From NCBI GenBank assembly GCA_964609675.1, contig CAZSRX010000022.1:6888-70887 (forward strand): a DNA stretch of 64,000 bases, in the 5' to 3' direction. Below the pieces are notes generated by a model. That model was not told where the DNA came from. It did not search any database and worked only from the letters and a program-made list of their open reading frames with translations. The translations under genes were made by a program, and so were the position numbers. Positions 23,144-23,848 of this stretch are shown one piece after another; within the stretch, counting starts at the first letter, position 1, and each line of letters starts with the position of its first letter. The stretch is from an uncultured Bacteroidota bacterium. Its GTDB lineage: Bacteria; CLD3; SB21; JBBIRG01.

Positions 23144-23305
23144 CTCTGTGCCCCTCCGTGCCCTCTGTGGTTAAAGAAACAATTCACCACGGAGAACACA
23201 GAGAACCACGGAGAAAAAATAAAAACTCTGTGCCCCTCCGTGCCCTCTGTGGTAAAAAAACAATTTACCACGGAGAACACAGAGAGACACAGAGAAAAAG
23301 AAATA
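23144..23305. repeat. Two tandem approximately 80-bp imperfect palindromic hairpin units upstream of the GxxExxY gene
   Basis: Unit structure: CTCTGTGCCCCTCCGTGCCCTCTGTGG, then an A-rich loop of about 16 nt, then CCACGGAGAACACAGAGAACCACGGAG. The arms are mutual reverse complements and are themselves built from CTCTGTG/CTCCGTG heptamers. Confidence 0.85.
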
Positions 23306-23308
23306 ATT

Positions 23309-23680
23309 ATGATTGAAAACCTTATTACCGAAAAAATTATTGGCTGTGCCATTGAAGTGCACAAGCAATTAGGTCCCGGCTTGCTCGAAAGTGCATACGA
23401 AGAGTGTTTGTATTACGAACTCATCAACTCGGGGCTGGAAGTGAAGAAACAACTTGCATTGCCTTTGGTTTATAAAGAAATAAAACTCGATGCCGGCTAC
23501 CGCATCGATTTGCTTGTGGAAAACAAAGTGATAGTTGAAATTAAATCGGTTGATGCCCTTGCCGAAATACACAAAGCACAACTGATGACCTACATGAAAC
23601 TGGCAAATATAAAAGTTGGCTTGCTGATGAATTTCAATGTCACAAAATTAAAAGACGGCATTGTGAGATGGATAATCTAA
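23309..23680 (+). CDS. GxxExxY protein (PD-(D/E)xK nuclease superfamily, TIGR04256-like)
   Basis: 123 aa. Contains [15 protein letters not shown] (the G-x-x-E-x-x-Y motif), then [18 protein letters not shown]. Typical size and hairpin-repeat context for this family. The ORF-track start at 23240 lies inside the repeat, so the Met at 23309 is preferred. Confidence 0.85.
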
Positions 23681-23684
23681 AGTC

Positions 23685-23848
23685 AATTCACCACGGAGTA
23701 AAAAACAATTCACCACGGAGCACACAGAGATACACAGAGAAAAAAAACTCTGTGCTCCTCAGTGCCCTCTGTGGTAAAAAACAATTCACCACGGAGAACA
23801 CAGAGGTACACGGAGAAAAACCTCTGTGCCCCTCCGTGCCCTCTGTGG
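23685..23848. repeat. Two to three further hairpin repeat units downstream of the GxxExxY gene
   Basis: Same left-arm, loop, right-arm units, for example CTCTGTGCTCCTCAGTGCCCTCTGTGG...CCACGGAGAACACAGAGGTACACGGAG, ending with a lone left arm at 23822-23848. Confidence 0.85.

Follow-up and report, generated by a model that had tools for sequence, protein, structure and literature searches.

A compact cassette consisting of a GxxExxY gene and flanking inverted repeats was characterized in a 64,000-nt stretch of DNA from an uncultured Bacteroidota bacterium (contig CAZSRX010000022.1; hereafter the window). Positions 23144-23848 of the window comprise one gene-bearing unit and, clustered with it, three to four gene-less ones, all of a single compact cassette family, since the same arm architecture brackets GxxExxY genes family-wide and also occurs without a gene. 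On balance the cassette is probably a selfish element acting at the DNA level, with arms that would be bound and processed by the nuclease encoded between them, in the manner of repetitive extragenic palindrome (REP) doublets (REPINs) and their REP-associated tyrosine transposases (RAYTs), or of an insertion sequence (IS) and its miniature inverted-repeat transposable elements (MITEs). Searches of the literature on GxxExxY, PF13366, TIGR04256, the four-helix-bundle/intervening-sequence protein, REPIN/RAYT and the arm sequence found no description of an arm-gene association, and as far as found the architecture is both widespread and undescribed. An earlier reading made from the letters of this DNA (the sequence-only reading) had called GxxExxY genes known to be repeat-associated; the association itself was borne out, but its "known" status found no confirmation in the literature searched.

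Arms and gene in the window and across the family

The left (L) and right (R) arms were searched by mismatch-tolerant matching over the whole window, with the expectation taken from shuffles. Four L arms (CTCTGTGCCCCTCCGTGCCCTCTGTGG, 27 nt; shuffle expectation 0.00), four R arms (core CCACGGAGAACACAGAG; shuffle expectation 0.05) and one partial R arm were found around the 123-aa GxxExxY / PD-(D/E)XK gene, in the order L1-R1, L2-R2, gene, (r), R3, L3-R4, L4 along the + strand (Table 1), confirming that the hairpin repeats proposed around this gene are real. No further copies of either arm were found in the rest of the window. Tandem Repeats Finder reported two arrays with 90% matches each, one upstream of the gene at 23136-23299 (period 81, 2.0 copies) and one downstream at 23698-23855 (period 74, 2.1 copies), and 10-nt sub-repeats within the arms. 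The functional unit appears to be a triplet of 7-nt iterons rather than the palindrome of about 80 bp described in the sequence-only reading. Folded as + strand RNA the units reached -31 to -36 kcal/mol (z -6.5 to -9.6), and the whole region gave a z of -13. Folding of the - strand was stronger (units -39 to -50 kcal/mol, lowest -50.2, far beyond shuffles) because the spacers between heptamers, mismatched as C:A on the + strand, can pair as G:U on the - strand. Hairpins of about 27 bp had been predicted; the strong folding was recovered but not the continuous 27-bp stem, a + strand unit consisting of three 7-bp helices with C:A-mismatched spacers between them. Two registers are possible for the array, L-loop-R or R-loop-L, and the family-wide register is R-x-L. 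As also anticipated, the repeats give rise to spurious open reading frames (ORFs) on both strands, one of them a GTG-started 146-aa ORF that extends the real gene (23240-23680), and the array is not one of clustered regularly interspaced short palindromic repeats (CRISPR), since A-rich linkers of 6-16 nt connect its palindromic arm pairs and unique spacers are absent. Rfam searches of the window at the gathering threshold, of the region at E up to 5 and of 17 other hairpin loci returned only sub-threshold miRNA-hairpin noise and tRNAs.

The ORF at 23309-23680 matched TIGR04256 (E 4e-46, 156.1 bits; cut-off 35) and PF13366 (PDDEXK_3; E 1e-44, 151.8 bits; cut-off 22). In alignments A1, A2 and A3, residues G24, E27 and Y30 of the GxxExxY motif and D67, E77 and K79 of the PD-(D/E)XK site were invariant, and the conservation of PD-(D/E)XK residues on which the sequence-only reading depended was thereby upheld (E27, D67, E77, K79). 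The core follows the alpha-beta-beta-beta-alpha-beta order of the PD-(D/E)XK fold, with catalytic residues on strands 2-3. The protein falls short of Cas4 itself, scoring 20.0 bits against PF01930 (cut-off 22.7) and having two cysteines only (C13, C33) rather than the four-Cys Fe-S set; compared with Cas4/RecB nucleases it is about half the size, lacks the Fe-S cysteine set and has no CRISPR context. PADLOC gave weak Cas4 similarity only and no other model, and a search of the PDB by sequence gave no match. The PF13366/TIGR04256 family is large, with 22,113 representatives at 50% identity (E up to 0.001) among 1.84 billion proteins; its function has been given as "Unknown" and multiple transfers were noted for PDDEXK_3 in an earlier survey (PMC3424549). 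Proteins 85-93% identical are labelled as coming from different classes and phyla. Three members of 265-295 aa (P0310, P0311, P0313) are natural tandem two-domain fusions in which domain 1 retains D...ExK and domain 2 has lost it (e.g. NFDLLV...VLVVSV), and this pairing of an intact domain with a second copy lacking ExK suggests that the working unit is a dimer and would fit one with a single active site. Other entries (P0020, P0027, P0028, P0039 and others, 146-149 aa; P0410, 388 aa) carry an N-terminal extension or a fusion to the upstream gene product. These 146-149-aa and 388-aa database entries are gene-calling artefacts of read-through of the R arm, from which peptides such as ...TENTERHRE... 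and ...GGTEETPREG... arise; the GTG-started ORF of the window is an artefact of this kind too. No GxxExxY homologue was present in the phage collection, and IMG/VR held 6 distant homologues only, with AT-rich arms.

Homologues 89-97% identical to the window protein lie in at least three unrelated neighbourhoods (thymidine kinase/DUF3592 and TPM phosphatase; a CofH-like and a hypothetical gene; a type IIG restriction gene) and have the same CTCYGTG/CACRGAG arms, with the R arm ending 13-15 nt before the ATG. In the thymidine kinase neighbourhood strains vary in how far the gene lies from the next one, in steps of roughly a whole 84-nt unit; one strain has 5.9 tandem units, and assemblies break within the array. 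Loci of one species from different samples (L122-L131) show downstream arrays that vary by strain from ~2 to 6 or more 84-nt units, with a run of N inside the array in L123; these length differences represent either real copy-number variation or assembly collapse. A wider set of 80 metagenomic and 6 viral loci was fetched for relatives 39-68% identical. Across these 86 loci strict two-heptamer arms occurred at 1.07 per kb within 250 nt of the gene and at 0.037 per kb farther off, a 29-fold difference, mostly as R upstream and L downstream. Comparison of each upstream flank with the reverse complement of the downstream flank placed 56 of 81 loci above every shuffle, with sharp outer ends. A blind scan of ~1.2 Mb of fetched DNA for inverted repeats around an ORF of 80-300 aa gave 29 such ORFs, of which 27 were GxxExxY genes and two were antisense ORFs overlapping such genes. 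The proposal of a selfish mini-element cassette fits this outcome, every inverted-repeat-enclosed small ORF in that DNA being a GxxExxY gene or an ORF overlapping one; nor are the hairpins unique to this site, as close and distant GxxExxY homologues alike are flanked by the same kind of arms.

The usual order within a cassette is R arm, up to ~30 nt, ORF, up to ~25 nt, L arm, giving ~450-480 bp per unit. An arm comprises about three 7-nt units (CACRGAG, complement CTCYGTG) at 9-10 nt spacing, capped TT(C/A)ACC...GGT(G/T)AA. The heptamer differs by locus (CACAGAG, CACGGAG, CACGAAG, CACAAAG, CGCAAAG, CGCAGAG, CGCCGAG, CACGGAT, CATGAAG or CAGTGAG) and within one locus is the same throughout both arms. 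Heptamer class tracks protein clade, with a protein identity of 0.606 within a class against 0.545 otherwise, a difference reached in none of 2000 permutations, and gene and arms therefore appear to evolve as one unit. A search for covariation of protein columns with heptamer positions was discarded, its top columns being translated upstream arm and the remainder confounded by phylogeny. Cassettes are also present in RefSeq records of isolates: in Bacteroides finegoldii the gene lies between TTCACCACAGAGGACGCAGAGGACACGGAGG and CTCTGTGACCTCTGTGTCCTCTGTGGTGAA in the interval from radA to the gene for an FAD protein, and in Bernardetia a unit lies between ade and a mannose-1-phosphate guanylyltransferase gene.

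Gene-less hairpins and probable insertion sites

One genome per species was scanned for CTCYGTG-N3-CTCYGTG-N2-CTCYGTGG, yielding at least 120 stretches where ~1 chance match was estimated from information content. These came from Acidobacteriota, Planctomycetota, Bacteroidota, Chloroflexota, Desulfuromonadales, Verrucomicrobiota, Gammaproteobacteria, Spirochaetota, Omnitrophota and Methanosarcinales. Apart from two with a GxxExxY gene (see below), the motif loci among the matches listed were short hairpins, mostly R-loop-L with loops of 14-75 nt, or lone arms. Among the same listed matches 92 were intergenic and 20 inside crudely called ORFs, gene-less units lay 38-49 nt past gene 3' ends, and contexts were convergent in 30 cases and divergent in 10. 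The ends of gene-less units are conserved as TT(C/A)A-CCAC...GTGG-T(G/T)AA, with A-rich flanks on the left and T-rich flanks on the right; at least five T in the 8 nt past the stem were found in 9 of 38 gene-less units (24%), compared with 2.4% at random positions. No gene remnants were found in the longer hairpin loops. One amidase gene between two separate hairpins was the only other cargo between strict arms among the matches listed, and was judged incidental.

Querying a plasmid collection (72,556 records) with the class-A hairpin retrieved 14 records, of which Bacteroides contributed 12 and Gemmatirosa 2, with no other genus represented; both genera also have GxxExxY genes among their records in this collection. 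The two Gemmatirosa replicons have 17 and 12 such hairpin places, the former number comparing with 3 GxxExxY genes on that replicon. Hairpins of two heptamer classes are present in Gemmatirosa. In Gemmatirosa kalamazoonensis plasmid 1 (L244, 19932-20374) a GxxExxY gene is split over two frames, either because it is a pseudogene with a frameshift or through an error in sequencing; a CGCAGAG-class hairpin comes after it, and CACAGAG-class hairpins lie 5-8 kb off. Elsewhere a complete hairpin of another class is nested in a hairpin loop, as at L082 3362-3513 (CACAGAT/ATCTGTG within the CACAGAG class) and L011 6634-6870, suggesting that the unit centre is itself an insertion target. Direct repeats of ~49 nt are present in a Caldilineaceae locus (L010, 770-8000) and in L020; these consist of L-type arms only (CTCCGTGYCCCTCCGTGCCCTCCGTGG plus an A-rich linker), with no inverted partner and no hairpins. 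The sole literature match to the arm sequence came from a paper on the Bacteroides fragilis capsule (PMC3090145), whose reverse PCR primers for BF2782, AACTCTGTGTTC(C)TCTGTGGTG, contain arm-like heptamers ending ...CTCTGTGGTG, a feature on which the paper makes no remark. An arm thus probably adjoins BF2782 in B. fragilis.

A filled and an empty site could be compared in one case. In a Geobacteraceae locus (L013) nuoM and nuoN are 469 nt apart and hold an R arm-GxxExxY-L arm cassette, whereas three relatives (NuoN 70-72% identical) show an ATGA overlap between these genes; the relatives compared are only about 72% identical in NuoN. In 58 of 68 loci the GxxExxY gene points the same way as the gene upstream of it, from whose stop it is separated by a median of 70 nt, an arrangement suggesting expression by read-through from that gene.

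Readings of the arms

If R and L arms paired in the transcript, as local hairpins or as a stem enclosing the ORF, they could be cut by RNase III, or could stabilize or insulate an mRNA released from the host operon. Units folding far better than shuffles, the z of the whole region, a gene usually co-transcribed with the upstream host gene (as judged from co-orientation) and the cassette inside the nuo operon all accord with such an RNA-level element. A stem kept for its pairing is expected to have complementary spacers, wobble favoured on the transcribed strand and no need for identity among its three segments. Instead, over 56-65 loci, arm-to-arm complementarity was 91.5% in heptamer columns and 48.5% in spacer columns (Fisher p 4e-62), and the heptamers within one arm are identical, which is not required of a stem. 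Mismatches between arms comprised 288 transversions and 214 transitions; wobble-compatible transitions numbered 94 for sense-strand G:U and 120 for antisense-strand G:U, a non-significant antisense lean (p 0.087). The step from one heptamer to the next was 9 or 10 nt in 76 of 103 cases, and an arm has 2-4 heptamers, most often 3. No continuous stem maintained by compensatory or wobble changes was therefore seen of the kind found in rRNA intervening sequences, and the direct arrays of one arm type in some lineages, as well as the lack of an Rfam family match, also argue against RNA. The suggestion in the sequence-only reading that the hairpins serve as RNA substrates is thus not favoured, the spacers being non-complementary and the sense strand showing no wobble bias, and we consider an RNA-level element unlikely. 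Since the heptamers are paired and alike, the spacers unpaired and sense-strand wobble not in excess, we infer that the arms are iterons in inverted orientation, with binding sites that recur along one face of the double helix.

A host-serving role as REP-like punctuation, in which terminators, insulators or nucleoid-protein sites are kept by the host and the GxxExxY gene merely lands or survives among them, is similarly improbable. It would account for the placement of gene-less units shortly past stop codons, their excess in convergent contexts, and their A-rich left and T-rich right flanks with T-runs past the stem; on the - strand of the window, each L-R hairpin is likewise followed by a U-run and faces the convergent rnhB-rpsA genes. 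It leaves unexplained the tight enclosure (1-30 nt) of a gene, in most members, of this family alone, the tracking of protein clade by heptamer class, the iteron build of the arms, and a near-identical 27-mer from Bacteroidota to Acidobacteriota, Planctomycetota and Methanosarcinales. On the gene strand of the window, moreover, the hairpins are followed by A-runs with no U-tract, and a terminator consensus scan of the window did not call them. Terminator function, as proposed in the sequence-only reading, is accordingly not supported for the gene's own strand, but the antisense strand does have hairpin plus U-run and may use these as terminators against antisense or convergent transcription. 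A secondary role of this kind, especially on the antisense strand in this Bacteroidota lineage, is compatible with a selfish DNA element. If the cassette were moved by a recombinase from another locus, as in integron or Xer systems, the palindromes would be recombination sites and GxxExxY a promoterless cargo. The layout of a short ORF between imperfect palindromes, co-oriented with upstream genes, is cassette-like, and a tyrosine recombinase gene lies ~0.8 kb downstream in two related loci (L228/L229); against this, the arm ends have no attC core motifs (RYYYAAC / GTTRRRY), no integrase adjoins the window cassette or most other loci, the cargo is always the same gene family, and the arms, unlike attC, are conserved in sequence as well as structure, making this explanation very unlikely. 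Scarcely credible is a type III (ToxIN-kind) toxin-antitoxin or defence module, in which repeat RNA is processed by the nuclease and inhibits it. Tandem repeats do adjoin a small nuclease gene here, and the window copy and its closest relatives do lie in defence islands beside type IIG restriction genes, but most members have a single inverted pair rather than an upstream tandem direct array, the fold is that of a Cas4/RecB-like DNA nuclease with only weak Cas4 similarity in PADLOC, and many copies have housekeeping genes as neighbours (nuoM/nuoN, radA, ade, thymidine kinase). CRISPR, attC and ToxIN readings were all rejected on architecture.

For the selfish element favoured here, the cassette would be mobile at the DNA level. 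A dimeric nuclease would bind its iterons, each helical turn offering one site, and the likeliest such nuclease is the Cas4/RecB-like GxxExxY protein whose gene the arms enclose. This nuclease would pair and cut the arms, leading to the unit being copied or moved into A/T-rich spots just past stop codons, where read-through from the host gene upstream would provide for expression of its gene. The hairpins that lack a gene would correspond to MITEs or REPINs, as non-autonomous derivatives moved in trans, and tandem arrays would gain or lose entire units of 74-84 nt. A bolder version, which is possible but rather doubtful, holds that GxxExxY nucleases mobilise the smallest autonomous prokaryotic mobile element known (~450-480 bp) and that gene-less hairpins from Bacteroidota/Acidobacteriota to Methanosarcinales are its offspring, the whole being a PD-(D/E)XK counterpart of RAYT/REPIN with horizontal spread and clade-specific iteron recognition.

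Several observations weigh against such an element. A GxxExxY gene lay within 1 kb in only 2 of the 120 motif stretches among the matches listed, both times between the arms, and the direct L-arm-only arrays in Caldilineaceae are not predicted by a simple inverted-repeat element model. No target-site duplication at unit ends was detected above shuffled controls (offsets 0-6, k 2-5), and no recent transposition was caught, each exact protein looked up sitting at a single genomic site. The closest solved relatives of the GxxExxY fold are single-stranded DNA exo/endonucleases (Cas4, Dna2) and not transposases, and the protein is a nuclease core with no obvious extra DNA-binding domain. Co-clustering of heptamer and protein is explicable by simple co-descent or a host effect. 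Finally, the history of the window copy appears to be one of local recombination rather than clean transposition, since the block it shares with related loci carries a piece of a neighbouring restriction gene (see below).

Parallels with known systems are partial. Tn7 or Mu ends and plant Ac and En/Spm exemplify transposons with subterminal repeated binding sites. In common with these and with IS/MITE pairs, the cassette has terminal inverted repeats (56 of 81 loci) with repeated, putatively protein-binding motifs, gene-less derivatives that retain the ends, nested insertions, and, in the one nuoM-nuoN case between relatives about 72% identical in NuoN, a filled against an empty site; it differs in its small size of ~450-480 bp, in having no DDE, serine or tyrosine transposase, and in showing no target-site duplication. 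The 23S rRNA intervening sequences enclose an S23p / four-helix-bundle ORF by a stem. They resemble the cassette in combining an ORF of ~120 aa from a multi-copy family of unknown function with inverted repeats inside a host transcription unit, but the cassette arms are not continuous stems, its sites are intergenic rather than rRNA helices, and its protein belongs to another family. Integron cassettes share promoterless short ORFs lying side by side between imperfect palindromes of which one strand folds better (as in the window copy); here, however, the arm ends are TTCACC / GGTGAA with no attC core, no IntI is among the window neighbours, the cargo comes from one family only, and arm sequence is conserved. 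The likeness to REP/REPIN-RAYT extends to short extragenic palindromes just downstream of genes, the same repeats inverted around one small dedicated gene, a repeat class that co-varies with gene clade, the lack of target-site duplication, and gene-less copies that outnumber genes. RAYT is an IS200/IS605-type HUH Y1 transposase, whereas the cassette protein is a PD-(D/E)XK protein of Cas4/RecB kind; a REP is a single GTAG/CGTC-tagged palindrome, whereas the cassette arms are triplets of 7-nt iterons at helical spacing. REPIN-RAYT systems are described as mostly vertically inherited (10.1101/2022.05.22.493013), in contrast to a cassette repeat that is near-identical in many phyla and shows signs of horizontal transfer.

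Conserved inverted iteron arms and REP-like hairpins across phyla give a concrete hypothesis to a large family of unknown function, one that can be tested in culture, for example with Bacteroides finegoldii and Gemmatirosa kalamazoonensis. GxxExxY genes clutter many bacterial genomes, and the cassette ranges over many bacterial and some archaeal phyla. The arm architecture also accounts for spurious or N-terminally extended ORFs (the 146-149-aa entries) and for assembly breaks in arrays. Should the nuclease recognise its own heptamers, its family would be a source of many small natural proteins with different 7-bp specificities.

Genomic surroundings of the window cassette

Table 1. Features of the cassette cluster and its upstream neighbourhood in the window
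Feature	Position	Strand	Basis
HKD+Snf2 helicase (PADLOC C3a139 / DrmD-like)	14030-17389	+	profile/PADLOC match
KilA-N protein, candidate system PDC-S22 (E 1e-132)	17429-18259	+	PADLOC match
Type IIG restriction-methylase, 1249 aa	18261-22010	+	profile match
DUF3644 protein, candidate system PDC-S19 (E 1e-78)	22020-23063	+	PADLOC match
Relic of last ~24 codons of a different type IIG restriction-methylase gene (YDEVKVIDPDFPLSRQEYEAIRLE, then stop); left edge of shared block	23066-23140	+	alignment to L228
L arm 1 (CTCTGTG CCC CTCCGTG CC CTCTGTG G); partner of R1, or orphan in R-x-L register	23144-23170	+	arm match, folding
R arm 1 (CCACGGAG AA CACAGAG AAC CACGGAG)	23187-23213	+	arm match, folding
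L arm 2	23226-23252	+	arm match, folding
R arm 2, upstream arm of gene-bearing unit, ending 14 nt before ATG	23268-23294	+	arm match; equal spacing in homologous loci
GxxExxY gene, 123 aa, minimal Cas4/RecB-like PD-(D/E)XK nuclease fold	23309-23680	+	profile matches
Partial R arm (CCACGGAG, one heptamer), within 24-nt duplication absent from L228/L233	23691-23698	+	sequence, repeat-family search
R arm 3 (1 mismatch)	23713-23739	+	arm match, folding
L arm 3 (2 mismatches)	23748-23774	+	arm match, folding
R arm 4, right edge of block common to window and L228/L233	23789-23815	+	arm match, block comparison
L arm 4, extra arm, not in L228/L233	23822-23848	+	arm match, block comparison

The window belongs to a 71-kb JGI metagenome contig. 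Upstream of the cassette, and on the same strand as the GxxExxY gene, the four genes at 14030-23063 form a defence island. Window positions 23064-23815 align to L228 4760-5560 with ~91% identity and are common to L228 and L233, two loci in which the shared block takes in the last ~75 nt of a restriction gene. The corresponding relic in the window has ~90% DNA identity to the 3' end of this 1142-aa Eco57I/MmeI-type gene, suggesting that the restriction gene was swapped by recombination and the cassette left in place. No empty site was found for the window's own cassette, its closest relatives also having the block. The tyrosine recombinase gene of L228/L229 (Phage_integrase, MrpR_C_cat; 6174-7019) is absent from the window.

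Downstream of the array ~1.1 kb (23860-24957) is without a convincing gene and is followed by rnhB and rpsA on the - strand. Within this gene-poor stretch a short open frame at 24249-24440 ends ...VIKLVKSIERIAELESDDPFLIGIKERAEAVEERYVDRRL before its stop codon and looks like the C-terminus of a type I restriction R subunit, and positions 24440-24950 are more GC-rich, with no Rfam match. The - strand hairpins with U-runs occupy 23140-23298 and 23744-23820.

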